Assembly: GCF_030028105.1 (NCBI RefSeq)
Contig: NC_092383.1
Span: forward strand, 11,051,796 to 11,115,795
Origin: Mobula birostris
Lineage: Eukaryota
Direction: 5' to 3'
Length of the DNA stretch: 64,000 bases
Part shown: in pieces, positions 16,819-63,987 of the stretch
Numbering within the stretch: the stretch's first letter is position 1
How the letters are laid out: the number at the start of each line of letters is the position of its first letter
Made by a program: the position numbers and the translations under genes
Notes under the pieces: generated by a model
The model's database searches: none
The model's input: the letters and a program-made list of their open reading frames with translations, nothing else
Told to the model about the DNA's origin: nothing

Positions 16819-16939
16819 CCTTACTCACTCTTCCTTCAGTTAGTCCTGACGAAGGGTCTCGGCCTGAAACGTTGACTGCACCTCTTTCTACAGGTGCTGC
16901 CTGGCCTGCTGCGTTCACCAGCAACTTTGATGTGTGTTG
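16819..16939 (+). mobile_element. 121-bp Penelope terminal (pLTR) insert
   Basis: 16-bp TSD AGAGCTAATCTTAATC (16803-16818 / 16940-16955); same terminus as the GIY-YIG-bearing copy at 52400-53330. Confidence 0.85.
16841..16878 (+). ncRNA. Minimal type I hammerhead ribozyme motif (Penelope-associated)
   Basis: UAGUC-CUGACGA-AGG GUCUCGG CCU-GAAACGUU-GACUG: intact core, stem II, palindromic ACGU in place of helix III, and helix I UAGUC/GACUG. Confidence 0.7.
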
Positions 16940-16974
16940 AGAGCTAATCTTAATCTTATTTAGTTCCAGAAAAG

Positions 16975-17720
16975 TGGGACGAGGATATTTGGACATTGCA
17001 GCAGGGTATGGATTAGTTGCAGGAGTGGGGAAAATCTTGGCAAATGGATCTTAATGAAGGGAAGCGTGAGGTTGCACATTTTGAGAGAAGGTATGAAAAG
17101 TCATACTGTTACTCAGAGAGAGATTGCAGATGAGAGCAGTACAGAGGGCTCTGGATTTTATTGTACATGAAGCACAAAAGATTAGTAATATCACGCTGCA
17201 AATGATTAAGAAGGCAAATGGCACATTTGCATTTATTGTTAATGAGTTGAAGTTTAAAAATAGAGAGGCATTGTTACAACTGGTCAGGGTATTGGTGAGA
17301 TTGGATTGGGAATACTGAGCAGTTTTAGTCCCATCAGACCATTAAATACAGGAGCAGAATTAGGCCATTTGGCCCATCGCATCTGGTCCACCATTTCATC
17401 ATGGCTGATCCATTTCCCCTCTCAGCCTCAATCTCCTGCCTTCTCTCCGTATCCCTTTATGCCCTGACTAATCAGGAATCTATTAATCTCTGCCTTAAAT
17501 ATACCCAATGGCTTGGCCTCCACATCCTCCTGTGGCAACGGATTCCACAGAATCACCTCTTTCTGGCTAAAGAAGTTCCTCCTCATCTCCGCTCTAAAAG
17601 GACACCCCTCCTTGAGGCTGTGTCCTCTGGTCTTAGACTCCCCCGCTTTTGGAAACATCCTCTCCACATCCACTCCATCAAGGCCTTTCAGCAGTCCAGA
17701 GGTTTCAATGAGGTCAGCCC
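16975..17720. mobile_element. Two nested CR1 fragments (+ at 16975-17330, - at 17338-17720)
   Basis: KKANGTFAFI...LLQLVRVLVRL.WEY on +; MDVERMFP.AGESKTRGHSL...EMRRNFFSQ on -. Confidence 0.8.
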
Positions 17721-18059
17721 TCTAAATTCCTTTGTATAAGATGTACTGGCATTGGAGTCGGTGCATAAGAGGACTACTTGGCTACTGGGATGAGAGAATT
17801 ATCCTATCACTAGGAGTCTGAACTTTGGTAGAATGAGAGGAATCATATTGAGACATCTCTTAAAGGAGTATGGCAGGGTGGACATCGAAATACCTCAATG
17901 ATGCAAGAATGTCATCCATTTTATGTGCCATCATCCTGGTACATTCCACCTCAGGCCAATGTCAGGCAGGTACTGTAGGAGCTGAGCACTGTGATTAGCA
18001 GGCATGAAACAGCGCAACAACCGATGGAGGGCAATTTTAAGGCAAAAACAAACCCAATT

Positions 18060-19680
18060 CCAAATTAATATTAGTGACAGAATCAGATGCACGCCAGCTC
18101 TGACAGGGTTTGCAGACCGTTACTTCCTACAAGGCGAAACCCAACATCATGAATAACTGTGACGCTTCACTCCAAGGTCAGCTCAATGCTGCTTATTGAC
18201 TTTGAAATGAGGCATAAAACTACGCCTGTGCAAATCCCTCTAGCATCTGGTGACCCTCTGATCTTTGTCTTGAAGGCCGACGTCAGAACATCTTTCAAGC
18301 GTTTGAACCCTCGCAAGGCGTCGAGCCCTGATAGTGTACCTGGAAGGGAATTGAAAACCTGTGCCAAACAACTGGCAGGAATGTTCAAGAACATCTTCAA
18401 TCTCTCACTGCTGCAGTAAGAGATTCCCACCTGCTTCAAATGGACAACAATCGTTCCAGTGCCCAAGAAGAGCTGGGTGAACTGTCGCAACAACTATCAC
18501 CCACATCCACTGCATTCACATCTACTGTGATCAAGTGCTTTGAGAGGTTGGTCAGGCCAGAATCAACTCCTGCCGAAGCAAGAACCTAGACCCGCTACAA
18601 TTTGCCTATTGTCACAAAGGCTACAGCAGATGCCATCTCACCCCTCTCCAGTCAGCCTCGGATTCCCTGGACAATCGCAAGAAAGGCTGCTGTTTATTGA
18701 TTACAGATCAGCATTCAACACAATTAAACCCTCAGTACTAATCAAGAAGCTCCAATACCTAGGCCTCTGTACCTCCCTCTGCAACTAGATCCTTGACTTC
18801 CTCACTGGGAGACTGCAATAAGTGCGATCAGAAAGAACATCTCCTTGCTGACAGTCGACACTGGCACACCTCAAGGATGCATGCTTTGCCCACAACTCTA
18901 CTCTCCCTACACCCACGACTGTGTGTCTAGGAACAGCTCAAGCACCATCTATAAATTTGCGGATGACACACAATTATTGTTGGCAGCATTTCAGGTGGTG
19001 ATGAGGAGGCATACAGGAGTGAGACGGGTCAGCTGGTAGAGTGGTGTTGCAACACCAACCTTGCACTCAGTGTCAGTATGAACAAGGAATTGTTTGTAGA
19101 TTTCAGGAAGGGGAAGCCAGGGAAACACACATGAATCTTCATTGAGGGTCAGCGGTGGAAAGGGTGAATAGTTTCAAGTTCCTGGGTGTCAACATCTCTG
19201 AAGTTCTATCCTAGGTCCAACATATTGATGCAATTACAAAGAAGGCATGTGCAGCTATATTTCATTAGGATTTTTAGGAGTCTCGCAGATTTCTATAGAT
19301 GTACCGTGGAGAGCTTTCGAACTGGTTGCATCACTGTCTGGTATGGAACGGCCACTGCACAGGTTCAGAAAAAGCTGCAGAAAGTTGTAAACTCAGCCAG
19401 CTCCATCGTGGGCTCTGGCCTCTCCAGCGTCAAGGACACCTTCGAAAGGCCATGCCTCAGGAACACAGCATCCATCATTAAGGACCCTTGTCATCCAGGA
19501 CATGCTCTTTTACCATCCAGCAGGAGGCACAGGAGGCTGAAGACACACACTCAATGACTCAGGAACAGCTTCTTCCCCTTTGCCATCAGATTTCTGAACG
19601 GGCATTGAACCTATGAACACTACCTCATTATTTTGTTTTTGCTCTCTTTTTGCACAAATTACTGAATTTACTTTTTATAT
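18060..19680 (+). mobile_element. Rex1/Babar LINE, decayed RT and C-terminus (tail resumes at 20492-20600)
   Basis: [51 protein letters not shown] and IYKFADDT, with frameshifts and stops. Confidence 0.9.
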
Positions 19681-19683
19681 ATA

Positions 19684-20491: not shown

Positions 20492-21038
20492 TTTCTTATT
20501 GTAATTTATAGTTTTTAAAAAGATTATGAATTGCATTACTGTATACTGCTTCCAAAAAACAGCAAATTTCAGTGATATTAAACCTGATTCTGATTCTAAT
20601 GGGAAACTCTCAAATGTGGGATCATAGTAAGAACATAAGAGGCCACAGAAGGCTGTGAGTCTCTGAAATTCTCTACTTGAGAAGATTGAGGTGGCGAGAT
20701 CACTAGAGGTATTTGAGAGGTAGATTTTTCAGTTAGTTTGCGGCATTGGCACAGAAGAGAAGTTGAATCATGAGGTAAATCAGCTAGCATTATATTAAAT
20801 GGCAAGACATGTTTGAGGGGTTGGGATATACAGCTGCTCCCGGTTTCTTGTGATCCTCTGTTCAGCTACACGGTCAAACTAGGGCAGCAGGGGTTGCTCT
20901 GGCAGTAATCATAGCTGAGGGGAGACTTGCTGGGGAGCGGTGGAAGATCTTGGCTTGTGTGGGGTTAAAAGAGAGTAGATTTAAGGTTCATTTACCATGT
21001 GTACACGGAAACATACAGTGAAATGAGTTTAAAAATGC

Positions 21039-21200
21039 AAACACAAGGAAATCTGCAGTTGCTGGAATTTCAAGCAACACACATAAAAATTGCTGGTGAA
21101 CGCAGCAGGCCAGGCAGCATCTCTAGGAAGAGGTACAGTTGACGTTTGCGGGCTGAGACCCGTCATCAGGACTAACTGAAAGAAGAGCTAGTGAGAGATT
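21039..21200 (-). mobile_element. Penelope pLTR insert (hammerhead core disrupted)
   Basis: Near-identical to 25887-26020; GAAA changed to GCAAA. Confidence 0.8.
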
Positions 21201-22780: not shown

Positions 22781-22849
22781 AAACACATTGAAGTCAAATG
22801 TGCTCTGCTCTTCCATGCTGCATCTGACAATGTTATTTAAAACAGGCTA

Positions 22850-23470
22850 AAAGCAATACATAAATTACGGTCGGAAGTATATATATATTTAAAAAGTTAA
22901 ATTAAGTAGTACAAAAAAAGAGAAAAAAAGTAGTGAGGTAATATCCTTGGGTTCAGTGCTCATTCAGAAATCTGATGGCTGAGAGAAAGATGTCCTGGAT
23001 GCTGGGGAGGCTAGTGACCATAATGGGGCTGACTGAATTCGCAACATTCCACAGCTTATCTTGATGCTATGCAGTGGTTCCAACCACCCCACCCCTCCTA
23101 CCACCACCAGCATATCAGACAGTGATGCAGCCCGTTAGAATGCTCTTCACAACACATCTGCAGAAATCTGTGAATGTCTTTGTTGACATACCAAAATTCC
23201 TCAAACTCCAAGTGAAATATAGGCGTTGTGAGACCTTCTTTTTAGCTGCATCGGTACGTTCGGCCCAGGATAGATCCTCAGAGATGTTGACACCCAGGGA
23301 CTTGAAACTGCTCTTTCCATTTCTAATCCCTTGATGAAGACTGGAGTGTGTTCCCTCATCTTACCCATTCTGAAGTCCTCAATCAATTCTTTGGTCTTCC
23401 TGATGCTGAGTGCAATGTTGTTGCTGTGACATCACTCAACCAACTGATCTATCTTGCTCCTGCATGCGTT
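22850..23470 (-). mobile_element. Rex1/Babar fragment
   Basis: DFRMGKMREHTPVFI.G...ER.VSS remnant with the Rex1 3' UTR. Confidence 0.75.
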
Positions 23471-24049
23471 TAGCACTAAATAACACTATTCTGACCATCA
23501 CAGTTACTTAGATCATTACAGCCTGGCTTTAGTGTGCTGTGTAGTCATTACAACAGCAATGGACTGACAAAGAGCAGTATTGCTTCAGGGTTTCATCTCA
23601 CTGTTGCTGACATCCTTCTATATTTTCTGGTTAGACTGATTACAGCAGAAGCTATATTTTTGAAGGTTTAATACAATGCAGATGGAGAACTTATTTTTAT
23701 TTTTCTCACCCTGCTAAATTGGGCAATCAATGAAAGAAATAACATAGTGAATTCCTTCAAATCCATTGGCCCCGGGGGTAGCTGCTATGTTATTCTGATA
23801 TGAATCACAAGTGAAGTTCTTCGTAAATCCACATCTCGCAGTAATAGCCTCATGTTACAACAAGGCAACCACAAGACTGTTTACTCTTGTATTAGTGTTA
23901 TATTCAACATTTATAATCTTTAACTCAAATTCTGCAGATGCTGGAAATCTGGAGCAACACACGCAAACTGCTGGATGTTACTCAGCAGGCCAGGCAGCAT
24001 CTGTGGAAATTAATAAACAGTGGACGTTTCGGCCTGACTCCAACTCCTC

Positions 24050-25886: not shown

Positions 25887-26066
25887 AACACGAGGAAATC
25901 TGCAGATGCTGGAAATTCAAGCAACACACATAAAAGTTGCTGGTGAACGCAGCAGGCCAGGCTGCATCTCTAGGAAGAGGTACAGTCGACGTTTCGGGCC
26001 GAGACCCTTCGTCAGGACTCCCCCTCCCACTTTCAAATCTCTTACTAGCTCTTCTTTCAGTTAGTC
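25887..26066 (-). mobile_element. Penelope pLTR insert with inverted 5' piece
   Basis: 12-bp TSD CAGTTTAACTCA (25875-25886 / 26067-26078); removing it restores the host frame GSCSSLTQSDYLHRQNQVA. Confidence 0.9.
25983..26019 (-). ncRNA. Minimal type I hammerhead ribozyme motif (Penelope-associated)
   Basis: Minus strand AGUC-CUGACGA-A-GGGU CUCG GCCC-GAAACGUC-GACU: core boxes, GUC cleavage triplet, ACGU palindrome and helix I AGUC/GACU. One extra A follows the CUGANGA box. Confidence 0.7.
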
Positions 26067-32624: not shown

Positions 32625-32765
32625 ACCCTGTCCTAATGTAGGGTCTCGGCCCGAAACATCGACCGGTTACTCTTTTCCATAGTTGCCGCCTGGCCTGCTG
32701 AGTTCCTCCAGCATTTTGAGTGTGCTGTTCGGATTTCCAGCACCCACAGACTTCCTGCTGTTTGC
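32625..32765 (+). mobile_element. Penelope pLTR fragment (degenerate hammerhead)
   Basis: GTCCTAATGTAGGGTCTCGGCCCGAAACATCGAC...GGCCTGCTGAGTTCCTCCAGC. Confidence 0.75.
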
Positions 32766-33524
32766 AGTACAGCCCAACGTGCATTTGCGATACCCGATTC
32801 TCTTCCTTGATCTCTTCCGTACTCCTTGTTTAGTTGTCATTTTTTTTTTCCTATTTCATTCCAGGGATGAGTATTATTTCCAAGAACACAATTTGAAACA
32901 CTGTCATCTTCTGCCTCTCAAGGGACCCAGTGAGATTTGCGATAATTACTGTTGGCAGCACTTAAACCTAGAAAATTAAGCTAATTTTCATTGAAAGTGT
33001 GAGAAAAAAATAGTCCGATTCATTTTTTGATCAATTATCCCATATTAATGTACATCAGTATGACTGATTTTGATATACTTAATATTCAGATTAATACCAT
33101 TGAGGATGCTCATAATTAGTAGAAGGGGGTAATTAGAATACCTAACACAGGTGACAAAGACAGTTTAGTTACTGTACATCTTGATAATAATGCCTTGGTC
33201 ACTTGCTGATTTAATTTGCAGTTGAGATCAGTGTTTGAGGCAGATCTAAACTGGCAAGATTAATTTTGGATTAAACACTACAGCAAGCTGATGTTAACAG
33301 CAGCAGATAATCAGCCAATTGGCTGCATTAAATCCTGTATGCTCAAAGTCTCCAGAGCTCATACTGTATCACCTTTAGTTGGCTTGCCGCCTTTATACTG
33401 AGCAGATGGAGAATCAGGGGACATGATTGTCTACATGAGCAGCGTGCATTAGCTACTGGCAAATCTCACTGATAGTTTATGCTAGGGAGATAATTTCCTG
33501 AGATGGCTACTCTAGGCCAATGAT

Positions 33525-34190
33525 TCAAGATTGTTTAATGTCATTTCCAGTACACAATATGTAAAGGATTGTTACTCTGGATCTGATGCAGCATGTGATA
33601 AAAAACACACTAAGATAAAGAATATAACAATAAAGAGGCACACTAACTATAAATACAAGCATTAGGGCTCTGAAGAAGGGTCTCGGTCTGAAACATCGAC
33701 TGTTTCTTCTTTTCCATAGATGCTGCTTGGCCTGCTGAGTTCCTCCAGCATTTTGTGTTGTCTTGGATTTCTGCAGGTTTGCTCGTGTTTGTTACATAAG
33801 TTAGCTGATATACGTAGACTGATTACATGTAGACAAAGTGTCACGAGATGCAGGAGTGTCTGTACATAAGGTGACTCTGGCAGGAAATGATAAAGTAGTG
33901 GTGATGAGTGGAGTTCATGAGTGGAGGTGTTGATCAGCTTCACTGCTTGGGGAAAGTAACTGCTTTTGAGTCGAGTAGTCCTGGCGTGGATACTACATAG
34001 CCTCCTCCCCGATGGGAGTGGGGCAAACTGTCTATGAATAAGTGTCATGATACTGCTGGCCTTTTTCCAGCACCGTTCTGTCTAAGCGTCCTTGATGGCG
34101 GGTAGTCTGGTGCCAGTGATGCGTTAGACAGAGTCCACCGAAGGTTGGTGTTCCCAACTCTCTGCAGTTTCTTGCAGTCACGTGCACAGC
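33525..34190 (-). mobile_element. Rex1/Babar 3' fragment with nested Penelope pLTR (+, ~33667-33790)
   Basis: PLPSGRRLCSIHARTTRLKSSYFPQAVKLIN; nested CTGAAGAAGGGTCTCGGTCTGAAACATCGAC. Confidence 0.8.
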
Positions 34191-35689
34191 AGACTGCCAT
34201 GCCAAGTGCCTGTGTGAAGCTCGCCGTTCTCCTTGTGTCCACCTAGGCTTCCTCCAGATGCTCCAGTTTCCTCCCATAACTGCAAGACATGCAGGTTAAA
34301 TATGTGGAATTGGAATCCAGCCATGTCTTTCTGACCCAGGTGAGGAAATCATAACTTAGTTACACTGATCACCAGCGGGGAGCAGAAGTTTTCTGGCAGA
34401 GAGCCATACGTTGCTTATAGTGAGACTTTGAGTGATGTGGGTGGGACAGGGCTGGCAGTGTAAGAGGAAGTTTCATAAAGAACCCTGAACTTTTTATTAG
34501 GCTTCACTTACATAGGCAATGCTATCTCTCAATGATAACGTTCAGCTGCACCAGCCAGCCAAGCCCACTGGTGAAGAGCACCATGTTAAATCTATAGCAG
34601 CCCTTCTCCAAATGCCCGACAGACACAGCCTAATCCGAAGTATTGGTTTATTTAAGAGTGGGGGATGCCTGATGCATTTACACGAGAAGGATTTTCTTCT
34701 GAAGATGTTTTTTTTTAATGGGCTAAGCACTTTGAATCTGTTGCTATAGCAATAAGAACACGCCACTGATATTATTTGGTGACTGCAGGCAATGTTAACA
34801 GGCCAGCATGCCCACTGAATGTGTCACCGAAGCTGCAATATTACATCCCATTACAGCTGATGTTTCAATAATCCGAGGTGAAAACTAGCAATAATAAAAA
34901 CAAGAATGTACTCAGTGTTTAAAATATTATAGTTCGCAAACAAAATTCATGATTTTATGTTTTCCCATGATGAATAATTTGCAAATATGCCCTTCTCAGG
35001 AATTGAATGTTGTTGCTTTAATGTGGCATCAAGAACGTTATGAATTCATGCACTGATGCAGACATTCCTATGTAATATTCTGTTCAGATTTTCTGCTTAT
35101 CAGGGTGTTTGACCCTTGACGATGAAACAGTTCCCTGCTTTAAGCTCCCTAAAGGTCTTGTAGTAGCCGTTTTCAGGGTCATCGCCAGGCTGGGTATCTC
35201 ATCCCACCTCTGTCTTGCCCTCTCACGCTCTTGCAAGTGTAACTCAACCCTTTCCACCCTCTCCCACTAGATAGGTATCTCACTCCCAGCTTGCATATCT
35301 TACCATTCAAGACCACAAGAGATTCTGTAGTTGCTGGAAATCTTGAGTAACACATAAATAATTCCAGAAGAACTCAGCAGGTCAGGCAGCATCTATGGTG
35401 GGGCGGGGGGGAATAAACAGTTGAAGTTTCTTTTCTTCCAAAGTTCTCTGCCCTCTCCTATTAGACATCTTCTCCTTCAGCCCTTTACCTCTTCCACGTA
35501 TCACCTCCCAGCTTTGAACTTGGATTAAGTAAGTATCTTGGAATGTTTTCCATTCTCTGCACAGCCATCCGATTTCAAGGCCTTTTTGAGATTCAGATGA
35601 AAGTGGACAAATCACAGAAAACATTGGTTTCTATGAATGCTGCTTTAATGCAGATCCAAATAATAGTGGGAAGAGCATTGGGTCTGCCC

Positions 35690-36790: not shown

Positions 36791-36917
36791 GTCCTCAGCA
36801 GGTCAGATAGGATCTGTGGAGAGGAATATACAGTCCCAGTGAAAGGTCTCTGCCTGAAATGTCGATAGGTTGTTGATGAGTTGGGCTGAAGACAATTTCC
36901 ATGCTGTATATCTCTAG

Positions 36918-37614
36918 TACTTGATGACCGGAGCGACTTAGCTGAACCTGAGTTGGTCTGGGATTGTCCTCACAAAAATACCTCAGCCGGATGTGTTGTG
37001 TCCAGATGGAATGAAAAGAGACTGCAGGTGCTAGGGTCTGGATCAAAAATAACCTGCTGGAGGACTCAACAGGTTGAACAGCATCTTTGGAGGGAAAAGG
37101 AAATGTCGATTGTCCATTTTCCCTCCACAGATGTTGCCCGACCCTCCGGATTCCTTGGGCAGCTCATTTTCTATGGCGAGGCAGATACTGATGCCAGATA
37201 CAGCAGATTCTGCAGACGGTGGAAATCCAGAGGAACACACAAAAAATTGCTGGAGGAACTCAGTAGGTCACGCTGCATCTATAGAGAGAATTAAATAATC
37301 GACGTTTTGGGCCGAGACCTTTCATCAAGGTTGGTAGTTTGTCCAAACACTAACCGTAACTTCCACCACAACCATTACCAACTTGCTGCTTTTATGATAT
37401 TAGCCAGCTCCATATGGGTACTAGCCTCCATAGTATGCAGGTCAACTTCAAGAAGCAGTGCGTCAGAAAGGTGGTGTCCATCATGAAGGACTCCCATTGT
37501 CCAGAACATGCCTTGTCTCATGTATTTACTTGATGACTGGAGCGACTTAGCTGAACCTGAGTTGGTCTGGGATTGTCCTCACAAAAATACCTCAGCCAGA
37601 TGTGTTGTGTCCAG
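36918..37614 (+). repeat. 88-bp direct repeat (36918-37005 and 37527-37614)
   Basis: Copies differ at only two positions, both CpG-type transitions. Confidence 0.9.
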
Positions 37615-38110: not shown

Positions 38111-39121
38111 ATAGTGACATATCTAGTGGAACTGCTGACCCACCATACCAAAGCAGCACATAATCTGCCAGAGGAACTCGGGTTGAGCAGCGTCAGCGAG
38201 AGAAAAGAAATTGTTGATATTTTGGGTTAAAACTTAGGACCGAAACATCGACAGTTCCCTTCCCTGCTGAGTTCCTCCAGTAGGTTGCCTGTTGCTTCAG
38301 ACTGCTGCATCTGAAGTCTCTTGTCTCACAAGACCAAAGATCCAGGTTCATTCCTGACTCCGTATGCTGTGGGTGTGGGGTTGCTGTGCTTTCTTCTAGT
38401 TGCTTAGGCCTCCTTCCAGATCCCAGAGACATGTGAGTTGGTAGGTCAACTGGTCATTGCAAATCGCCCCTAGTTTACAGGTGTGACATAAGAATGTTCA
38501 AGGCCTTTGATGTTAATATGGGGAGAACAAATTATAGGATTAATCTCAGATAAGAGTGAATTGATGTGGATGTGGTAGGCTGAAGGGCATAGAGTAATGA
38601 GTAAGAGGAGAAGGTTGGAGAATGGAGTCAAGAGGGATAATAAATCAGCCAGGACTGACAGAGCAGACTCAATGGCCTAAATAGCCTAATTCTGCTCCTC
38701 TGACTTTGTATTGTAAAGGGTGAATCTTTGTGTGTGTCATATGTCTTCACCGCCTGGCCTTGGGTGTACGTGACTTGCTACAGAAGCTTCAGTACTACCA
38801 TGAGATCATGAAAGTCAGGTGAACACAGAGGCGGGACTTGTGAAGAGTGGTGGCAAGTGATGATTGGTTCAGTGGTTTGAGCTGGTGCGAATGTATTGGC
38901 CCATTTGCTGCAGCATTTTGTATCAGTGGAGTAGGTCTAAAAGTAGAGCGGTCAGGGGCAAGTTTTACCAGGGACTGGATTGTAAATGGTACTGCAGATT
39001 GGGCAGAGTGGATGTGTGCTGCAGTGAGTGGGTGGGGGAGGGTGATGGGGGAGGCACATACATCGGGATAAGTATTGTTCTGTCCTAATAAACAAAGTTT
39101 TGAAATAGATAAGGGGAATTT

Positions 39122-39461: not shown

Positions 39462-40786
39462 AAGGGGAGTTTTTGTCTTTTTGCTTAGCAGCCGGCTCTG
39501 CGAATCTTCCGCCGTAATTTAATAGTCTTATGATTCTTTACAATGAGATTCAGATGGAAGGTGCAGCTTAGACGAGGAGATAAAACAATCAACACTGTAG
39601 ATATTTTGGGAGAGAGAAACAGTTAGTGATTCACGATGATGATCTTTCATCAGACCTTTAAGCAATTTCAGACTGATGACTTTTAGATGAAAAGTCCTAC
39701 ACTGAAGAGCTAACTCTTTTTTTCTCCCCTCAGTTTCTGCCTGACCTGCTGAGTATTTCCAGCATTTCTGTTTGTATCTCAGATTTGCAGTATCTAGATT
39801 TGCTGTTTTGGTGACATTTTCAAGAGTTGATTCATTGCTAAATTCTATCCCATGTAAATGAGAAATGATGTTCATAGTGACAGTTCTTTATAAACTGGAT
39901 TATGGAGAGATAAGTACAGATTAAGAACTGAGTTTCCTTCTTGGGATCGTTTTCCAAGATCTTCCAATGCACCTTAAATATTCAGATCAGCTGGGCAGGC
40001 CATTGGTTTTGTGGCTCTCGTGAAGGATTGTAGCTCCAATAGTCTTGCTCTGAGTATCAGCCTTGTTGTGGAATGAGACAAACTCACACCCACTGACTGC
40101 ATCCTACCACTCTAGGCTGAAAGCCGAGTTGGTGAACCTTCAGTAACTGCTGTGACAATATTCTAATCCTAACACCAGATTTGAGACCATCTCCATGGGT
40201 AAAGAAGAGAGATGGTGGGACAAACCAAGACGTCCCGACCTGAAACATTGGCTGTTAATATAGCTGTTAACATAGGAGCAGAATTAGGCCATTGGGCTCC
40301 TTGTGTCTGCCCCACCATTCAATCATGGCTGATTTATTATCCCTCTCAGTTCCATTCTCCTGCCTTTTGACCCCCATAACCTTTGACCTGCACACTAATC
40401 AACTAGCTATCATCCTCCATTTTAAATATACCCAATGAGTTGGCCTCCACAGCTGTCTGTGGCCACGAACTCCACAGATTCACCACCCTCATGCTCGAAA
40501 CAGTCTTGCCTGACTTGCTGAGTTCCGTAAGCATTCTGTGTGTGTTGCTCAACATTTCTAGCATCTGCAGGTTGTTTGTGGGAAATTAGTTGTACCTTTA
40601 ATTAGGTGGGCATTGTAAGAGAGAAAAGGGACTGACCAGAGGTTTCATTTACTGTCCCATCTTGAGTATTTATTATGGCATAATGTACCAGAAAGGACAA
40701 CATGGAACTTGCGTTACAATGTTTCATTTTGCCTCTACAATGCTGGCTACTTCATGGATCTTGTCTGAAGAAGCAACTGCTAAGCA

Positions 40787-41538: not shown

Positions 41539-42004
41539 GTGAGCGTGCTGACAACATTGGAAAGGAGGTTTAACCTGCAGAGTGCCGACGTCGGAGTCAT
41601 CGCCAGCAGCTTCGAGATTGGCAACCTGGCCTTGATTTTGTTTGTGAGCTACTTTGGGGCGAAAGGGCATCGGCCACGTCTGATAGGATGCGGGGGCATC
41701 GTGATGGCCCTGGGAGCTTTGCTGTCTGCCCTCCCCGAGTTCCTCACCCACCAGTATGAGTACGAATCTGGGGAGATTCCCTGGGGACTGGAAGGAAAGG
41801 ACCTGTGTGTTGGGAATGTATCAGCCAGCAACCAAGGACCAGAGGCAAAAATCATCTGCAGGAACAGGACTTCCACCAACATGATGTACCTCCTGCTAAT
41901 TGGAGCCCAAGTGTTACTGGGCATTGGTGCTACTCCTGTCCAACCCCTTGGAGTCTCCTACATTGATGACCATGTCCAGCGGAAGGATTCCTCCCTGTAC
42001 ATAG
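41539..42004 (+). CDS. SLCO3A1: SLCO3A1 (OATP3A1) coding exon 2 (466 nt)
   Basis: Acceptor ctttcttcag|GTG and donor ATA G|gtaaga. Peptide VSVLTTLERRFNLQSADVGVIASSFEIGNLALILFVSYFG...HRPRLIGCGG...ICRNRTSTNMMYLLLIGAQVLLGIGATPVQPLGVSYIDDHVQRKDSSLYI(G) is the OATP3A1 TM1-TM4 region and joins exon 1 in frame. The ORF-track 41539..42060 call runs into the intron. Confidence 0.97.
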
Positions 42005-46245: not shown

Positions 46246-46519
46246 AAGGGATGATTGCTCGCGTTAAATTGACAGTGGGGAAATCGAGCCGAAGAGCAAC
46301 TTGTTGGTGTGTGAAGTGAACTGGGCTGACCTTGAGAATAAGAAGCCAAGTTCATAGTATGGAGGGTGGTGAGGGCTTCATAGGCCTGAAGTGACCACTT
46401 TACACAGAAGAGATAGTAAGAAGTTTGAAAATGGGAGGGAGAGAGGGAGACCTGAAATGATAGGAGAAGACAGGAGGGGGAGGGATGGAGCTAAGAGCTG
46501 GAAAGTTGATTGGCAAAAG

Positions 46520-46823
46520 GCAGAATTTTCTACAGAAGTGATTTACCATTGCCGCCTTCTGGGCAGTGTCTTCACAAGATGGGTGACCCCAGCCATTATC
46601 AAAACTCTTCAGTGATTATCCGCCTGAGGTCAGTGGTTGCATAACCAGGACTTGTGATATGTACCAGCTGCTCATACGACCATCCACCACCTGCTCCCAT
46701 GGATTCACCTGACCAGAGGGGCTAAGCAGGTGCTACACCTTGCCCAAGAGTGACCTGCAGGCTAGTGGAGGGAAGGAGCTTCTTACACCCTGTTTGATAG
46801 CGGTGTACCTCCACCTCACCATC
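46520..46823 (-). mobile_element. RTE-type non-autonomous element
   Basis: Family match to 39122-39461. Confidence 0.75.
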
Positions 46824-47738: not shown

Positions 47739-49624
47739 GAAATAGGCTATTTGGCCCATCGTGTCCACTCCGCCTTCCACCTTGGCTGACTTATTATCAC
47801 TTACAGTTCTGTGCAAAAGTCTTAGTCACGTACTGTATATATAGCTAGGGTGCACAGTCCTGTAGTCATTTTATGAATTGGGTTGTACTGCTGTCACAAA
47901 AAAAGAATTCATGACATGTGTGCGATGTATGAGAGTGGGAAGGGGGCAATAGAGGGGTATTGTGGTTGGGCAAAGGGGAAGGGAGAGGGGAGGGAGTGGG
48001 AAGCACCAGAGAGTAATGATCAATACACCAATTGCTTGGAATCAAATGACCCCACCTGGTTTCTCAGGGCTGGATAGGTCTACACCCATGCCACCTGACC
48101 GCCATGGCACCCCTTCTCTGCCACCTGTTCCACACCCCTCCTGTGGTGCTCCACCCTCACCATTCCCTACATTCTTTGCTCCCACCAGATTTACAAACTT
48201 GCTCTCTGCTCCACATTGACAAATACAGTACTGTGAAAAAGTATATGTCTAAGGTTTTCGCACAATGCTGTAATCCCATTCTTCTGCTTTCTCGCCGTAA
48301 TCTTTGACACCCTTACTAATCAAGAACCTATCAACCTCCACTTTAAATATACCCAATTACAGCCATTTCTGGCAATGAATTCCACAGATAAACCACCTTC
48401 TGGCTAAGAAATTCCTGCTCATCTCTGTTTTCTATGCCCTCTGGTCCTAGACTCCTCCACTGTAGTAATCATGCTTTCCATGTCTGGCATCTTCACTACC
48501 TTCATATGCCTCTTTCTCTACCTTGACTCTGGGGGATGCTTGAAATGGGGTCAGCAATCTTTGTCTTTATAGTGTAGCATACAACTTTGGCCATGGAAAC
48601 TGATTTCTGTCTTGTCGTACCATATGTGGGGATGGGCTGAGGTATGGGGAATAAAGTTGAAGGGGCAGGATAATTAGTATTCATCCTGTCTTACCCATAA
48701 CGTGTGCAGTCGAGCCAGTGGGTGCTAATTTCTCTTTCTGCTCAGTTCTACCTCAGATATTATGAGAGATGGCTGTCCACAACTGCCCTTCTGACAGAGG
48801 TCAGCTAACCCAGTATACTGTCATCAGTGGCTTGGGCCATCCTGATTTATGTGGCCGAGTGCCTCACTGGTTGAACCAATCTCAAGTAGTGCTGAATCGG
48901 AGTACAGGAAGGAGATAGAGAGCTTAGTAATATGGTATTGTGAAAATGACCTTTCCCTCACTGTCAGCAAAATAAAGCAGGTGGTTATTGGCTTTAAAAA
49001 GAGCGCCTGCTTGTGCCTAAATGAGTAACGTTGACTGTGAGAGGGCTGGGAGCTTCAAGTTCCTAGATGTGAGCATCAACAATCGCCTGTCTTGGTCCAA
49101 CAACATTGATGTGACCGCAAGAAAAACTCCCCAATGTCTCTACTTTCTCAGGAACTTAGAGAAATGTCCCTGTCGACTCCTCCCGATTTTATTGATCCAC
49201 CCTAGAAAGCATTCTGTTTGTAGAACTTTGCAAGAGTCTTTGTTATACTTCTGACTATCTGCCTACGTAAACTTATGCCTCTCATAAAATCAGGCCTCCC
49301 CTCAGCCTCTGACACTATATCCAACCTCTCATTCTGATTCAGGTCCTGGTGAACTTCTTCTGCATCTTCTCCAAAGCCTCCACATCCTTCCTGTAATGGC
49401 ACCAGAACTGTCACAATACTCCAGACATGGTCTATTCAAAGTGTTATACAGCTACAAAACAACTCCCTGACTCTTATTATCAGTGCCCCTTGACCAATGA
49501 AGCCAAGCATGCCATATGATCTCTTTACCATCCTAACGACTTAGGATGCCACTTTTGGAGAGCTATGAACTTGCAACTTTCTGCATATTCATCTTCCTAA
49601 AGCAGGGGTTCAATTACCAACTCA

Positions 49625-49825
49625 TGCAAAATACTGGAGGAACTCAACAGCTCTGCAGGTCAGTCCTGACGAAAGGTCTCAACCCGAGTCGTCAACTGTT
49701 TATTCCCTCCATAGATGCTGCCTGACTTGCTGAGTTCCTCCAGCATTTTCCATGTGTTACTCTGGATTTCCAGCGTTTTCCATGTGTTACTCTGGATTTC
49801 CAGCATTTGCAGAATCTCTTGTGTT
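49625..49825 (+). mobile_element. Penelope pLTR with inverted leader and a 30-bp internal tandem duplication
   Basis: CAGTCCTGACGAAAGGTCTCAACCCGAGTCGTC (degenerate hammerhead); CCAGC(A/G)TTTTCCATGTGTTACTCTGGATTT occurs twice. Confidence 0.75.
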
Positions 49826-50469
49826 AGAGATTGACTCAGTTCCGTTGTGGAACTTTGCTGCGTAAACTCTACTTTTGGTATTCCCTGACATTGCACTGCA
49901 GGAATAAGTAGTTGACCGCAAATTGCTTGAGGGAATGTGAAAAGGGTAACATTTTTAATGCAGCAATTTGAAAAAGGAGAACTTTGGTCTTGAAATGTGT
50001 ATCATTGGATAGCTAATAAAATTGCCCTGCTTGTAATTATTTTTTCAGATTTTATAGATCTGATATCCAAAGAAACAGATAGGAAATATCAGAGGTCGGG
50101 AAGAATGAAGCACAAGTACTGCTTTATTTTTGCTGTAGGTCACAGCTGAGGTTTGACTCATACAAGGAGGAAAGTCAGAGATCTGGGAAAGTGATTAGCC
50201 AGGTTTCTGCTAGTATGCCTCTGAACTAGTGTCAGAATTCATCATTCATTCCCACAGAACTTCTCACACTGCATGACTACTGATAACCTGACTCACAGAT
50301 AGCTTTTGAAGGTAACCAGCTGTGGAATGCAACTTTTATATCAGATTGTGTCTCTAAATTATTTAAAAAGTGTTTCTTTGAAAGCTGTGGGACTTTAATA
50401 ATGAATGAGGTAGTGTGGTGGACGCATTGGTCTAACCAATCGTTGCTACATCTGCAGGTCAGAGTAATC

Positions 50470-52399: not shown

Positions 52400-53330
52400 T
52401 CTCTGCAAATCTATTTAAGGGGATTCTACTACTAAAGCATTTTTACTCCCACTGTCTGCTTTCTGCAGGGATCAATCTCTCCATGATCTGTTGTACATCA
52501 GTCCCTCCCCACTAATCTCCCTCCCGTCACTTATCCCTGCAAGAGGAAAACGTGTCCATTCACCTCCTCCCTCATCACCATTCAAGGCCCCAAACAGTCC
52601 TTCCAGGTGAGGAAATACTTCACCTGTGAGTCTGTCTGTTGTATCTGGTGGTCCCGCTGCAGCCTCCTCTAAATTGCTGAGACCCAACCTAGATTGGAGA
52701 CCATTTTGTTGAGCATCTTGCTCCATCCACAACAAGCAGAATTTCCCAATGGCCAACCATTTTAATTCCACTGTCCATTCCCATTATGACATATTCCCAT
52801 GGCCTTCACTACTGCCGCAATGAGCTCACTTCTGTGTTGGAGGAGCAACACCTCATGTTCCGTCTGGGTAGCCTCCACCACCCTGATGGCATGAACATTG
52901 ATTGCTTAACTTCCTCTCGCCCTCCTCTCTTTTACCTTTCCCAATTATGGTTCCCTTCTTACTTGCTGTCTTCTCCTTACTTTCTATTACCTCTGTCTGG
53001 TTCCTCTTCTCCTTCCCCTTCTCCCATGATTCACTTTCCTCTTCTATTATATTCCTTCTTCTTCATCAGCCCTTTACCTTTTCAACCTATCATGCTCCAG
53101 TTTCTCACTTCACCCCACTCCTCCACCACCACGATACTTCCCCCTTCACTTGGTTTTACCCATCACTTTCTAGCTTGCACTCCTTCCCATCTCCCACACC
53201 TTCTTATTCCGGCTTCTTGTCCCTTCTTTTCCAGTCCTGATGAACGTTCTTGGTCCGAAGCGTTGGCTCTGTATTCCTGTCCATAGATGCTGTCTGACCT
53301 GCTGAGTTCCTCCAGCTTTTTCTAAGTGTG
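52400..53330 (+). mobile_element. Penelope-like element 3' part: decayed GIY-YIG endonuclease, pyrimidine tract and pLTR
   Basis: IQGPKQSFQVR.YFTCES...CIW.SRCSLL*IAETQ.RL.DHFVEHL...PMANHFNS, then HGLHYCRNE....LEEQHLMFRLGSL.PDGMNID; terminal CAGTCCTGATGAA...CCGAAGCGTT. Confidence 0.85.
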
Positions 53331-53527
53331 CCTCTCTACAAACCTGCGTAACTGCATAATGGTCAGTAACTCAGACTCGGCCAGTTTGAATGAATGACAC
53401 TCAGCCAACTCCATCATGGGTACTCACTTCCCTACCATCAACACCTTCAAAAGGCGATGCCCCAGGATCGGAATTAGGTTTAATATCACTGGCATATGTC
53501 ATGAAATTTGTTGTTCTGCTGCAGCAG

Positions 53528-55098: not shown

Positions 55099-55107
55099 AG
55101 TATATTT

Positions 55108-59294: not shown

Positions 59295-59595
59295 GGAGAG
59301 ATATGTCATAAAATTTGTTGTCTTTATAGCAGCAGAACAATGCCATACATAATAATAGAAAAATGTAAACTACAGTAAATATATATAAATGAGTTAAATA
59401 TGTAGTGCAAAAATAAAAATTAAAAAGTAGTGAGGGAGAGTTCATGGGTTCAATGTCCATTCAGAAATCGGATGGCAGAGGGGAAGAAGCTGTTCCTGAA
59501 TCGCTGAGTGTGTGCCTTCAGGCTCCTGTATCTCCTCCCTGATGGTAGCAATGAGAACAGGGCATGACCTGGGTGGTGGGGGCCCTTAATGATAA
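59295..59595 (-). mobile_element. Rex1/Babar 3' fragment
   Basis: IIKGPHHPGHALFSLLPSGRRYRSLKAHTQRFRNSFFPSAIRFLN. Confidence 0.85.
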
Positions 59596-59864: not shown

Positions 59865-60470
59865 AATAGACAATAGGTGCAGGAGTAGTCCATTCGGCCC
59901 TTCGAGCCAGCACCACCATTCACTGTGATCATGGCTGATCATCCACAATCAGTACCCCGTTCCTGCCTTCTCCCCATATCCCTTGGCTCCACTATCTTTA
60001 AGAGCTCTATCTAACTCTTTCTTGAAAGCATCCAGAGAATTGGCCTCCACTGCCTTCTGAGGCAGAGCATTCCACAGATCCACAACTCTGGGTGAAAAAG
60101 TTTTTCCTTAATTCCGTTCTAAATGGCCTACCCCTTATTCTTAAACTTTGGCCTCTGGTTCTGGACTCCCCCAACATCAGGAACATGTTTCCTGCCTCTA
60201 GCGTGTCCAATCCCTTAATGATCTTATATGTTTCAATCAGATCCCCTCTCATCCTTCTAAATTGCAGTGTATTCAAGCCCAGTTGCTCCAATCTTTCAAC
60301 ATATGACAGTCGCGCCATCCCAGGAATTAACCTCATGAACCTACGCTGTACTCCTTCAATAGCAAGAATGTTCTTCCTCAAATTTGGAGACCAAAACTGC
60401 ACACAGTACTCCAGGTGTGGTCTCACCAGGGCCCTGTACAACTGCAGAAGGACCTCTTTGCTCCTATACT
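59865..60470 (-). mobile_element. Young CR1/HER1 3' fragment
   Basis: QLYRALVRPHLEYCVQFWSP...RGDLIETYKI. Confidence 0.9.
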
Positions 60471-61571
60471 GTGTGTTCCTACTTTGTGCTGCATCGGATC
60501 TGAAGTAACAATCATTTTGTTCTCCATTACACTTGTGTACTGGAAATGACAGCAAACAATCTTGAATCTCCATACTCCCTTCAGTCTGCATTTAAAGTCA
60601 GGATTAAACTTGGGTCTGTGGTACAGTGAACTAGTGGCTCTGCTAACTCGCTGCTTTAAGTACTCCCTTGTGTCTTTTGAAGGCCCTTATTGAGTCCTAC
60701 AACCATTATCTGCACAGGTTTCAGAAAACAACCATCTGCATGAAAAAAGATCCTCTTCTTCTTTCCCTTACATCATTTTCATATAACTTTCAAAGTTCAA
60801 AATACTTCAAAGTTCAAAATACCTCAAAGTTCAAAGTAAATTTATTATCCAAGTATATATATGTCAGCACATACTACCTTAAGATGCACTTTCTTGCAGG
60901 CAGACACAGGAAAATAAAGAAATAGTATAGAATTTACAGAAGCTATACATACACAGAGAAAGGCTGACCAACAACCAGTGTACAAAAGAAAGCAAACTGT
61001 GAAAATAAGAATTAATACTGTAAAGAGTCCTTGAAAGTTAGTGTGTAGTTTGTAGAATCTGCTGAGAGTTGTGGTGAGTGAAGCAGGTGAGAAGAACTTT
61101 GAATGGATATCTCCTGAAAATATATCTGTCCGTTAACCCCGTATAGACCAGTAGTCTTGCATACCTCTATTAATAGCAGAGAAGTGGAGTCCTTGACAGC
61201 AGCCCCACATCAGATTGTCAGAGAGACAGATGGCTGGTTTATTCTCCAGGGCCACGCAGCCAGCAAGGTGGCTAAAGTTCTGATTCAGTCGCAGATTTAC
61301 ACCGGCTGGCAGTCCTTGGGGGTCACAGCAAGAGAGGGAGTAAACATAGCTAGAGGGGTTGGCTGAGTGCTATTTATGGCCAAATGCAATTTTAGCATTC
61401 AGTTCTGGAGGACTAGAATATTAGAGCGTCACTGATGCAATTTTGGGCCTCACTAGTCTAAGTGTCCTCAGAAAAGAACAAGACTGACCACTTAATTGAG
61501 TGGCGTGGTTATGTTGGGCTGGAAGGCCTTGTTATCATGCTGTACCTCCATAATATGTATACTGCTTGACA

Positions 61572-62000
61572 TAAGCACAAGAGATCCTGCAGATGCTGGC
61601 ACTCCAAAGCAACTCACACAAAATGCTGGAGAAACTCAGCAGGTCAGGCAGAATCTATGGAAATGAACCAACAGTTTATGTTTCGGGCCGAGACCCTTCT
61701 TCACCACTCAAAAAACTAATACCAGTTTCAGTATCAGTATGGGACCTCGATTTTACCTGAGCCTCAGCTCTTCTGCTGAAGTAATGATTGTACGTTCTAG
61801 TATCAATTGCTTGGCGACAATGAAGTATAAAGTATAAAGTAAGAGTAAACAAGAGGAGATGCAAGAAACTGTAGATGTTGACTTCCCGAGCAACAAGCAC
61901 AAAGCTGAGGAGCACAACAGGTCAGGCAACATCTGTGGAGGGAAATGGGCAGTCGACGTTTCTATTTCTAAGTGTCTTGTCCTGAAACATTGATTGTCCT
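61572..62000. mobile_element. Penelope pLTR fragments
   Basis: CTGCAGATGCTGG...ACTCAGCAGGTCAGGCAG...TTTCGGGCCGAGACCCTTC and a second inverted pair. Confidence 0.7.
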
Positions 62001-62574
62001 TTTTTCCAAATACAGGATTAATGTAGGATCAGTGCAAATGTGTGGTTCTTGTTCAGTGTGGACTTGGGGGGACTGAAGTGCGTTTTATGTCTTTGACAAA
62101 CCAAGCTGATGCTGTTGCTGAGGACAGCTGTGTACAAGATAAAGTGATCACTAAATTGAGCAGAAACACGGGACAAAATTCGTCTTTGTTCACCGCTGTT
62201 AGTACTGGTGCAAGGGTACTAGCCACCAACTCCAGTTACTCTGCCTACATTCTTACATGAGTCCACTCACTGCTTCACAGATACTAGTAGACCGTATCAC
62301 AGCAAACTATGCACGCGAGAAATCCATTTGCGGTTTCTGGAAAGTGTCATTAATGAGCTAGAAACATTGAATAGCAATAAAACCCACAAGTTAAATGGAT
62401 AACGTAACAGCCCATTGGGTTTTATAAAGTAGCATTTCAAACTGATTTCTGTTAATCCTTCATTTCCAGACCACACTCTTCTTGGTAATTCAGACTAAGA
62501 TATTGCTACCATGTAGATGACTCCCTAAAGGAAACATCTTTCTGACTGCAAATGGTCTTTTCCAGTGAAGCCCT

Positions 62575-62855
62575 TCTTTTTATTCAAAACTACAAAGGTT
62601 TATTCACACAAACATACAGGAAATACAAACATAAGACAGTGAACAAATTCAAATTAGAAGATAATCATTACTGTTTATAAAGCAGTCAATTCCCTAGGGA
62701 GCTCACCATTTCTGGAAATCCCATACTGTACCGATGGTGACTGCATGCTCCTACTCCAAGAACATTCGGGTATGAACGTATCCCTGGAGGAGGGGGTAGG
62801 CAGTCAGTCTGGGCAGAGCCTGGACCTGTAAATGTCCATCTTGACCAGGCAAGTA
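62575..62855 (-). mobile_element. Tx1-like LINE 3' fragment
   Basis: Minus-strand remnant LVKM.I..SR....TDCL...QGYV.TR..LE.EHA...followed by an AATAAA/A-rich end. Confidence 0.55.
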
Positions 62856-63175
62856 AAAGCGCCCCAGACAGTTGCCCAGTAATGTTCCTGTTTGCACTTA
62901 CGGCAGAGTCACACTTTGAGATGGCTGGAAATGCAGGAGACCCTGATTAAGATGGAAACGAGAGAGGAACCAAGATGTTCGAACTATGTCTCAAAAGCCT
63001 TGACTTTGGATGGATTAGAGGAAGTGGCTCTTCAGATTACAATGAAATGTTCCAGAGCAGGAGATCGAATGAAGGAAATTGAACAGCAGAATCTTCTTCA
63101 AAAATGTTCATCTTTACCCGGGGGGGGCGGGGGGGGAGGTAAATGATTGCTTATTATACAGGAACCAGGGTTTAG

Positions 63176-63525
63176 AGGAGGTGTAAGGCGCTCCTTCCCT
63201 CCACTAGCCTGCAGGTCACCCTTGGGCAAGGAGTAGCACTTGCTTAGCCCCCCGATCAGGGTCATGTGAAGCTGTAGGAGCAGATGGTGGATGGTCGTAT
63301 GAGCAGCTGATGCATATCACAAGTCCTAGTTACGTGACCACAGATGCCAGGAGACAATCTCTGAAGAGTATTGAAAATGGCTGGGGCCACCCATCTTATA
63401 AAGACACTGCCTGGAAGAAGGCAATGGCAAACAACTTCCGCAGAAAAATTTGCCAAGAACAATCCTGGTCATGGAAAGACCAGGATCACCCATGCCATAC
63501 GACAAGGCACTTAATGAATGAACAA
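63176..63525 (+). mobile_element. RTE-type non-autonomous element
   Basis: Family match to 39122-39461. Confidence 0.75.
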
Positions 63526-63834
63526 CTGTATCATTTATATATATACTCTAATATTTATATATCCTTCCATCTTCCATTTGCCTTGCACTCAGAATAATGC
63601 AGGAACTTTTCTTGCTCTTACGTAAAGAGCTGAATAAATCTTCAGTCCCACACTTCGTTCTCACTTATAAAACATGAGACAGATTTGACCCCCTGCTCTT
63701 GCACTTTACCCATCGAGCGTGGATAGAAAACATGACCTGTTGCTACTTTGTCTTCCTGTCAGCCTTCAGAGCTTAAGTTCATCTTGTTAACCCATTCATG
63801 GGTTCCAACACCGAGAGAGCCAGTTAATTGCTCT

Positions 63835-63987
63835 TGCAACACACAGAAAATGCCCGGATAAAGGGTCTCGGCTGGAAACATCAATTGTACTCTTTTCCAT
63901 AGGTGCTGCCTGGCCTGCTGAGCTCCTCCAGCGTTTTTTGTGTGTGTCGCTCGGATTTCCAGCATCTGCAGTTTTCTTTTGCTCGTA
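63835..63987 (+). mobile_element. Penelope pLTR with inverted leader (degenerate hammerhead)
   Basis: AAGGGTCTCGGCTGGAAACATC...GCTGCCTGGCCTGCTGAG...CCAGCATCTGCAG. Confidence 0.75.

Follow-up and report, generated by a model that had tools for sequence, protein, structure and literature searches.

Short hammerhead-bearing fragments of a Penelope-like element in two introns of a ray gene, with 5' ends clustered at the ribozyme

Minimal type I hammerhead ribozymes are carried in the pLTRs of metazoan Penelope-like elements (PLEs), as set out in the covered sections of Cervera and de la Pena (2014; PMC4209133). These motifs have a CUGANGA core, an extra base before helix II, a G-C first pair, a 4-5-bp helix I and, where helix III would be, a palindromic tetramer directly after GAAA. 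Single motifs scattered in their thousands are ascribed there to truncated PLEs, and nearby dual motifs on opposite strands are also described. In the covered part of Craig et al. (2021; PMC8557442), Neptune and Nematis elements have a CX2-5CxxC linker before a C-terminal GIY-YIG domain, strong 5' truncation, adjacent inverted 5'-truncated copies and a 30-40-bp tail at one end. PAc, the Poseidon element of Anolis carolinensis (Frangieh et al. 2024; PMC11167929), has two alternative 3' ends, with the ribozyme some 100-130 nt before them, and inserts from uncleaved RNA. Non-LTR retrozymes, in the covered parts of Cervera and de la Pena (2020; PMC7229834) and of Li, Clavereau and Pollet (2026; preprint 10.64898/2026.07.22.740005), are short, non-coding, PLE pLTR-derived units with a type I hammerhead; the covered part of the preprint includes one chondrichthyan. 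The role of hammerheads in PLEs is still called unclear in the literature.

The inserts described here, found in a 64-kb window of Mobula birostris DNA, share each of the features just listed with the respective system. They also differ from each one. Helix II is short, 3-4 bp, compared with the motifs of PMC4209133, and cartilaginous fishes are unnamed in the sections and supplements of that paper that were covered. Unlike the Neptune and Nematis elements in the covered part of PMC8557442, the window holds no full-length copy and no partial tandem. PAc belongs to another clade, lacks the cysteine linker and has an ORF that starts at helix II. Retrozymes, as far as the covered parts of the two sources describe them, are head-to-tail tandem units with a ribozyme in each, whereas the inserts here are dispersed monomers or head-to-head pairs that end at PLE tail sites. 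The gain is incremental, since earlier publications cover this type of element, its ribozyme and the anatomy of its insertions.

Nineteen insert loci were found, 18 with the element's terminus and one an upstream-only fragment, and together they make up 3,584 bp (5.6% of the window). With nhmmer, 26 matches were obtained at E<=1 and 0 in the reversed-window control; one of the 26 (21253-21196, E=1.0) was excluded from the locus set because it lies inside another repeat. The literal motif with up to 3 mismatches matched 6 times in the window and 0 times in 100 shuffles. Pattern scans of metagenome contigs gave 0 loci, and the scan of viral contigs gave 1 chance-like 19-mer, which was left unused. 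The density of about 0.3 loci per kb is far above the 4,000-9,000 motifs per genome given for coelacanth and Xenopus in the covered sections of PMC4209133, a figure for intact motifs only.

The inserts occupy introns 1 and 2 of a likely OATP/SLCO gene of the ray, as the initial annotation had held for both introns. Exon 1 CDS of this family lies at about 6559..6699 (+) and exon 2 at 41539..42004 (+; Pfam OATP, E 2e-51). All 15 positions in that annotation have an nhmmer match on the strand it gave, but several are fragments rather than separate copies. Three of them (36835, 38240 and 61980) each form one arm of an inverted head-to-head pair, and the one at 40230 is half of a single copy, parted by a later insertion from its other half at 40507. 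The position at 24020 does belong to the repeat but lacks CUGANGA. Absent from the list were the minus-strand locus at 35430, the pairs at 37096/37100 and 39657/39686, and the upstream-only fragment at 46406..46520 (-; subtype A), which ends at about -11. Here and below, positions are counted from core C3, with the predicted cleavage site at +28.

Twelve arms span the whole motif and were scored. The minimal type I hammerhead that had been proposed, with a palindromic ACGT replacing helix III, is present with all its features in one of them and nearly so in 2 more. The perfect copy (26015; 26019-25984) belongs to the terminus at 25887..26020 (-). The motif at 16846 (16842-16877, in the terminus at 16819..16939, +) keeps all pairings, with one G.U and a GUU triplet, and the one at 21169 (in the terminus at 21037..21200, -) is mismatched once in helix I and has gained 1 nt by insertion; all three termini are of subtype A. 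In 9 of the 12 arms CUGANGA, GAAA or the ACGT palindrome is broken, and the ribozyme copies are mostly decayed. Conservation at non-CpG positions is 0.873 in the ribozyme and 0.870 in the downstream DNA, while the CpG positions of the ribozyme stand at 0.758. No Rfam hammerhead was found at the gathering threshold in the window, nor at E<=10 in the best copy; minimal motifs of this kind are absent from the Rfam models. The reading frame that starts with an ATG in the core is just some 21 codons long, and subtype A, judged from the alignment, is without this ATG.

Predicted folds were also examined. The isolated motif is predicted to form an inactive hairpin over -4..+31 (-13.3 kcal/mol), and the modelled MFE structures of monomer and dimer are non-catalytic. 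The whole-stub fold differs from that of the isolated motif and is not significant (z -1.5), and shuffled sequences fold more stably than the cDNA strand does (z +1.4). For the downstream part, a conserved fold was considered and rejected, as covariation (1 of 11 pairs) gives it no support.

The affiliation of the inserts comes from one long copy at 52445-53336 (+), whose ORF remnant has its closest named relatives in rays. Its first part (52445..52915) is a decayed ORF end of Neptune/Nematis type, with the end of the RT thumb, a partly deleted cysteine linker and GIY-YIG, interrupted by stops and frameshifts. This remnant has no Pfam match of its own. In tblastn it matches the protein P0002 (E 6e-31), and it also aligns to the C-termini of full-length RT+EN proteins. 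P0002 starts at the RT catalytic motif, keeps the CX2-5CxxC linker intact and has a Pfam GIY-YIG match (E 4.6e-4) that falls short of the curated cut-off. The cysteine linker with GIY-YIG occurs in 58 of 63 full-length relatives, and PF00078 is found on most of the 63; the RT core is missing from the 5'-truncated window copy. A profile-free protein search gave 31 matches of 96-416 aa, with no full-length ray ORF among them. The second part of the long copy (52916..53336) consists of pyrimidine-rich 3' UTR and the 3' end, with a mutated hammerhead (C3 at 53237) and no tail. The initial annotation had tied the motif to Penelope through this copy, and the tie holds, as the terminus is contiguous with the GIY-YIG ORF remnant. 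The motif does not sit at the ORF stop, as had been stated; about 320 nt of pyrimidine-rich UTR lie between. The protein remains point to a C-terminal EN+ source family of the Neptune/Nematis type, and the inserts are mostly short, decayed 3'-terminal (pLTR) fragments of a known Penelope-like family.

ORF sequence is present at this one locus of the 19. In two ray-like DNA runs, 56,286 and 61,718 contigs could be aligned with the long copy, its ORF part among the regions matched. In a rough estimate from these runs, depth at the ORF end is about a third to under half of that at the terminus, which makes longer copies a common form in the genome as a whole. The main loose contig ends, at 53272 and 53280, lie at the long copy's own mutations and continue with hammerhead-like letters. 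From two probable RNA runs, 3,321 and 4,708 contigs align to the long copy; these contigs may be DNA or intronic.

The initial annotation had credited at least two copies with their own TSDs, and two perfect ones are present. A 16-bp TSD (16803-16818/16940-16955) flanks 16819..16939, and a 12-bp TSD (25875-25886/26067-26078) flanks 25887..26066; among random pairs, at least 12 bp with up to 1 mismatch was seen in 4 of 300. No convincing TSD was found at the remaining 17 loci. Two features had been overlooked, an inverted arm at 9 of the 18 terminus-bearing loci and an optional 30-40-bp tail. The copies have two alternative 3' ends, about +90 without the tail and about +130 with it, and the tail is missing at 16846 and 53237. 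Inverted arms and an optional tail are described Penelope features, and both kinds of end and the adjacent inverted truncated copies match Fig. 2 of Craig et al. (2021) and Arkhipova et al. (2013), within the covered parts of these sources.

Seven of the inverted arrangements join two pieces of the terminus and have no overall strand. At 36794..36868 the arms meet through helix I (CAGTC/GACTG), the minus arm starting at +28, exactly the predicted cut, and the plus arm at -5. At 37016..37190 the minus arm runs from +38 with a tail and the plus arm from +20, with a junction overlap of 4 bp. The pair at 38146..38330, whose subtype is older, has a minus arm that begins at +7 and a tailed plus arm that begins at +16; in the pair at 39608..39797, whose subtype is diverged, the minus arm begins at -4 and the plus arm at +2. 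At 49615..49830 a plus arm from -5 with a tail overlaps by 5 bp a minus arm covering +58..+95 without one, and at 61862..62010 a minus arm from +20 with a tail faces a plus arm covering +7..+45. The insert at 63836..63985 has a plus arm from -1 with a tail, and 5' of it lies an 18-nt piece, an inverted no-tail 3' end. At the other two loci the inverted piece comes from upstream UTR. The terminus at 25887..26020 (tail) is joined to a plus-strand piece of -47..0 (26021..26066) within the same TSD, in a twin-priming-like arrangement, and the one at 35312..35430 (-; tail) adjoins a plus-strand piece at 35433..35518 that matches 53019-53092 (about -218..-135). Since these pieces reach 47 nt upstream in one case and derive from about 135-220 nt upstream in the other, the templates of 26020 and 35430 were likely longer than the inserts, if the twin-priming model applies to both.

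The 5' ends are the unusual feature of these inserts: starts gather at the front edge of the ribozyme rather than at the predicted cut site. The expectation that most copies begin near the ribozyme was correct, and their ends cluster by the core in a non-random way, unlike random truncations. Thirteen of 25 arms begin at -7..+7 (scan-corrected p 0.0005-0.008), where the ends were called by eye and the arms are mutually non-independent. Besides the arms of the pairs, starts within this range are seen at 32627..32766 (+; -6, mutated core), 25887..26020 (-4), 37195..37329 (-; about -1), 33670..33791 (+; 0, broken palindrome) and 61572..61703 (-; +1), all with tails, and at the split terminus at 40227..40580 (+; about +6), which holds a later insertion at 40269-40490. 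Other single termini begin inside helix II at about +12 (23926..24040, -; tail), at GAAA (+20; 35312..35430), at -27 (16819..16939; no tail) and at -31 (21037..21200; tail). Overall the ends span -31 to +76 across several sequence subtypes. A lariat branch-point stop as the cause of the -27 and -31 ends was dropped, with only two copies showing them. Our literature search, which took in passages of the preprint's main text and two of the three PMC4209133 supplement files, gave no report of 5'-end clustering or of chondrichthyan PLE hammerheads, and the abstract, results and discussion of PMC4209133 do not report such clustering. We regard it as a modest, testable novelty.

The explanation we lean towards, at slightly better than even confidence, is that the reverse transcriptase of the element itself copied long RNA that had not been cleaved, and that the inserts are abortive products of this copying, with a hotspot of stops at the ribozyme. 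By analogy with PAc (PMC11167929), the GIY-YIG domain would nick the target and the enzyme would start inside the RNA at one of two sites, leaving a tail or none; PAc is a Poseidon element, and its biochemistry serves as an analogy for the inserts here. The enzyme would usually pass the uncleaved ribozyme and drop off at -7..+7, where the structured motif meets the long pyrimidine tract. The cDNA end would then be joined to the target or to a second cDNA primed off the other strand, or would fold back through short self-complementary bits such as helix I and GAAA/TTTC. Such stubs would be dead on arrival, and their ribozymes would decay, CpG positions faster. The shared terminus, the two 3' ends, the two TSD loci, the inverted arms at half of the loci, motifs of intact length that are uncut and the clustered 5' ends favour this explanation. 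So do the two inserts with inverted upstream pieces, the first arm of 26020 ending at -4 in an insert with sequence to -47, the equal non-CpG conservation of ribozyme and downstream DNA, and the many contigs that align to the long copy. Against it, ORF sequence at 1 of 19 loci is less than the rough genome-wide depth ratio would suggest, a longer template is seen at 2 loci only, and the whole-stub and cDNA folds give the stop hotspot no significant structure.

An alternative that we hold to be unlikely, although it deserves weight, is run-off at the 5' end of an autonomous transcript. On a tandem transcript, reverse transcription would start internally, at the tail site of the 5' pLTR, and would run off where the RNA begins, at a start site or splice boundary immediately ahead of the ribozyme, giving a stub of 100-135 nt; such a stub would still be no independent element. 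This would account for the sharp pile-up. The RT of PAc has an internal start at the pLTR-ORF junction and gives a shorter product on 5'-shortened RNA, and Penelope of D. virilis has a start site and an intron within the pLTR, with the intron end at helix I. Here, too, the core has a pyrimidine tract ahead of it and an AG at -4/-3, but helix I also demands the AG. The short copies share no common upstream exon-like sequence, the first arm of 26020 ends at -4 though its insert includes sequence to -47, and the ends are spread from -31 to +20. No GT..AG joint ending at the ribozyme was found among the 15 of 828 contig joints listed, which is neutral on an intron.

It is rather improbable that the termini form a non-autonomous mini-element that propagates itself in the manner of a SINE or a retrozyme, with transcription from promoters of its own or of the host and copying in trans by Penelope protein. 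Eighteen of the 19 loci are without ORF sequence, the 5' ends are clustered, and the copies that start at -6..+2 would fit. Sequences of the pLTR are enough for mobilisation in trans in Adineta, and the covered part of the preprint reports non-autonomous retrozymes derived from PLEs in vertebrates, one of them a chondrichthyan. The window matches, however, include no tandem unit and no adjacent same-strand full units. No tRNA, 5S or 7SL family, as in a SINE-type Pol III head, was found by Rfam at the gathering threshold in the window, and the stubs begin at the ribozyme. PAc RNA needs sequence past the RT start (the first 172 nt of the ORF, compared with starts at 111-118), and by this analogy stubs ending at the RT start site would lack the PAc-type sequence needed. 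The initial annotation had suggested a self-contained mini-retroelement, and this is not supported: TSDs are expected of any truncated copy, upstream pieces lie at 3 loci, some of them inverted, several subtypes are present, and the ends are clustered yet heterogeneous, with one long copy for comparison. We likewise give little credence to a more specific form, in which the 100-140-nt ribozyme-tipped terminus would be a monomeric ORF-free parasite in rays, with an RNA start just 5' of the hammerhead, as a Penelope-dependent equivalent of a SINE. If true, it would mean that copying in trans has made the terminus extremely numerous with neither tandem arrays nor cleavage by the ribozyme.

A detection artefact is very unlikely to explain the clustering. 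The seed profile was made from motif-bearing copies, and the upstream UTR is low-complexity and subtype-dependent (A and B agree at 7 of 23 positions), so that motif-based recognition could leave a diverged upstream UTR unaligned. However, a profile of the sequence downstream of the ribozyme alone found the same loci again and no credible new motif-free locus in the window, its two weak matches (E 0.09 and 1.6) lying inside another repeat, and pyrimidine content at -30..-8 is 78-87% in the 3 copies that extend upstream and 22-52% in 9 that do not. Least probable is that run-off takes place at an RNA 5' end created when dimers are cleaved after GUC: such cleavage is published for the minimal type I class (reportedly by Luense and colleagues in 2017, as cited in a review), pairing of dimers through the ACGU palindrome is geometrically possible in models and the minus arm at 36835 begins exactly at the predicted cut, but it is the only one of 25 arms to do so, helix I complementarity explains that junction equally well, and 22 of the 25 keep sequence 5' of the cut.

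These last two counts agree with the uncleaved-RNA template seen in vitro, and a family this abundant is a natural record that bears on the role of PLE hammerheads. The excess of ends at the 5' edge of the ribozyme could map an RNA start or a reverse transcriptase stop. Mini-element or not, the clustered 5' ends would mark, as a fossil footprint across the genome, the places at which Penelope reverse transcriptase stops in vivo.

The window is animal DNA with a GC content of 43%, and the first two exons of an OATP/SLCO transporter gene lie on its plus strand (Pfam OATP, E 2e-51), with the exon 1 coding sequence at about 6559-6699 and exon 2 at 41539-42004. Inserts of a Penelope-like element (PLE) family were detected by motif and profile searches. 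The literal hammerhead motif gave six matches at ≤3 mismatches, compared to none in 100 shuffles. A profile built from 10 copies gave 26 matches with E≤1, against none when the window was reversed; all 15 positions listed in the initial annotation were among them. One match was left out (E=1.0, within another repeat). A second profile, made only from sequence 3' of the ribozyme, recovered the same loci plus two weak matches, at E 0.09 and 1.6, that lie inside another repeat (one reversed-control match at 0.92). Therefore, motif-free stubs were not overlooked in number. After grouping, 18 loci with the terminus (the ribozyme-bearing 3' part) and one upstream-only fragment together make up 5.6% of the window (3,584 bp).

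Perfect target-site duplications (TSDs) of 16 bp and 12 bp surround 16819-16939 and 25887-26066; 12 bp was reached by four of the 300 random pairs compared. The first of these copies lies within a short repeat of the AATCTT type (region 16780-16960) that seems to be where another repeat family ends, with self-matches at 1501-1738 and 16676-16762. Three separate family insertions, two inverted pairs and one stub, occur within 540 bp at 36794-37332; later copies may have landed in or beside earlier ones. The surroundings hold a second abundant family of at least eight copies, probably LINE 3' ends (61-432, 13329-13723, 19009-19683, 22860-23467, 36052-36792, 42376-42848, 55087-55626 and 59301-59593). 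Decayed ORFs at 53398-54285 (295 aa) and 60007-60591 (194 aa) belong to another abundant family and resemble CR1-type LINE C-termini; a Pfam search of the window gave no relevant domain for them. Intron 1 also has a short-period tandem repeat (9953-10257) and a CT-rich simple repeat (7633-8073).

The only ORF-bearing locus in the window is the long copy at 52445-53336. Its broken ORF end aligns to P0002, a related protein (E 6e-31), and is separated from the ribozyme by about 320 nt of pyrimidine-rich UTR. P0002 opens with the RT catalytic motif and also contains a CX2-5CxxC linker and a GIY-YIG domain, the latter scored by Pfam at E 4.6e-4, which falls short of the curated cut-off. This linker-plus-nuclease pattern was found in 58 of 63 full-length relatives. 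The nearest named relatives of the protein remnant are from Hypanus sabinus and Mobula hypostoma, which makes a ray the probable host. According to PMC8557442, the CX2-5CxxC linker marks Neptune and Nematis, and Penelope and Poseidon lack it. Immediately 5' of the core, a pyrimidine tract plus AG resembles a 3' splice site at 53220-53236 and 16830-16845, and this is also where the intron of D. virilis Penelope ends. Among the joints listed from contigs aligned to the long copy, none was spliced at the ribozyme.

In two DNA runs, 56,286 and 61,718 contigs aligned to the long copy (1 kb). Summed depth peaked at 3.35 and 5.49 million over the terminus, compared with 1.48 and 2.40 million over the ORF end. 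Such values are not copy numbers and are distorted where the reference diverges locally; they indicate only high abundance of the family and frequent ORF-end sequence.

The motif runs helix I (AGTC), CUGANGA, an extra A, helix II (GGG/CCC), GAAA, palindromic ACGT, C and helix I (GACT). Judged by sequence, this putative ribozyme is the minimal type I hammerhead set out in PMC4209133; Rfam had no matching model. Of the 12 arms that span the motif, only that at 26015, antisense to the host gene, is perfect; two more come close, and in the other nine the core or palindrome is broken. Conservation outside CpGs was not above that of DNA 3' of the motif (0.873 vs 0.870), and at ribozyme CpG positions it was 0.758. 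The monomer is predicted to fold into a non-catalytic hairpin.

The initial annotation overlooked the two 3' ends and the inverted arms of the inserts. One 3' end falls near +90 and the other near +130 relative to core C3, the difference being the optional tail of PLEs. An inverted arm abuts the 5' end at nine of the 18 terminus loci. In seven, the terminus sequence is present as head-to-head copies, and two of these (49661 and 63850) have a tail on one arm only; the loci at 26020 and 35430 carry inverted pieces of upstream UTR. An overlap of 4-5 self-complementary bases is present at three junctions, and at 36831 it is helix I itself. The 49661 copy has an internal duplication of ~30 nt at the no-tail/tail boundary (49769-49826), possibly from re-priming between two RT start sites. 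Inverted truncated neighbours, one-sided tails, palindromic junctions and solo pLTRs have been described for PLEs (PMC3846280, PMC8557442), and PMC4209133 notes opposite-strand dual motifs.

The 5' ends were placed by eye from profile matches and alignment. Counted from core C3, the 21 arms whose 3' end is canonical have starts at -790, -31, -27, -6, -5, -4, -1, -1, 0, 1, 2, 6, 7, 12, 16, 20, 20, 20, 38, 58 and 76, and the other four at -5, -4, +7 and +28. Thus, 13 of 25 arms start within -7 to +7. Positions -30 to -8 are 78-87% pyrimidine in three extending copies compared to 22-52% in nine non-extending ones, which objectively supports the by-eye calls. Clustering near the core, set as a test in the initial annotation, was borne out: tested against constant-hazard truncation, the ends gave a scan-corrected p of 0.0005-0.008 (18-20 canonical arms, under three detection floors). 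A cruder maximum-window statistic gave p 0.001-0.14, varying with the null. The per-locus count (12/18, p 0.0005) is biased towards significance since the longer arm was taken. Clustering is genuine in this window, in a small, non-independent sample of 25 arms. Earlier publications already cover the element class, the ribozyme, the dimer proposal, the dispersed single motifs and the insertion anatomy. Our literature search, which covered the text of a 2026 retrozyme preprint that includes one chondrichthyan, found neither a description of the family in rays nor any published account of such a concentration of 5' ends at the edge of the ribozyme.

We lean, by a little, towards the pile-up being a stop hotspot: a long RNA would be the template, and RT would tend to stop at the ribozyme edge. 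This is favored because the 26020 copy halts at -4 yet its insert has sequence to -47, and because the 35430 insert has sequence from -135 to -218. Thermodynamic modelling gave weak support for a stalling hairpin there. A second possibility, run-off where the transcript itself starts or at a splice boundary, is consistent with D. virilis Penelope, but no upstream exon shared by the copies was seen, and we consider it rather unlikely. More doubtful still is the self-contained mini-retroelement of the initial annotation, whose expected clustering is seen. A self-propagating unit fits the scarcity of ORF sequence in the window and has precedents in PLE-derived non-autonomous retrozymes and in pLTR mobilisation in trans in Adineta (PMC3846280); however, the copies in the window show no uniform start or tandem units, and an Rfam scan at gathering threshold gave no Pol III head. 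The two poorest fits are a detection artefact, which is very improbable, and ends defined by ribozyme cleavage, the least probable of all, with one of 25 arms starting at the predicted site (+28).

For PAc, the Poseidon element of Anolis carolinensis, RT initiates within the RNA at either of two sites, which set whether the product ends with or without the tail; both strands of the target are cut and extended, and insertion is unaffected by ribozyme mutants, the main template being uncleaved RNA (PMC11167929). This biochemistry accounts for the two 3' ends and the uncut motifs of the family in the window, and PAc-like second-strand extension may lie behind its inverted pairs.
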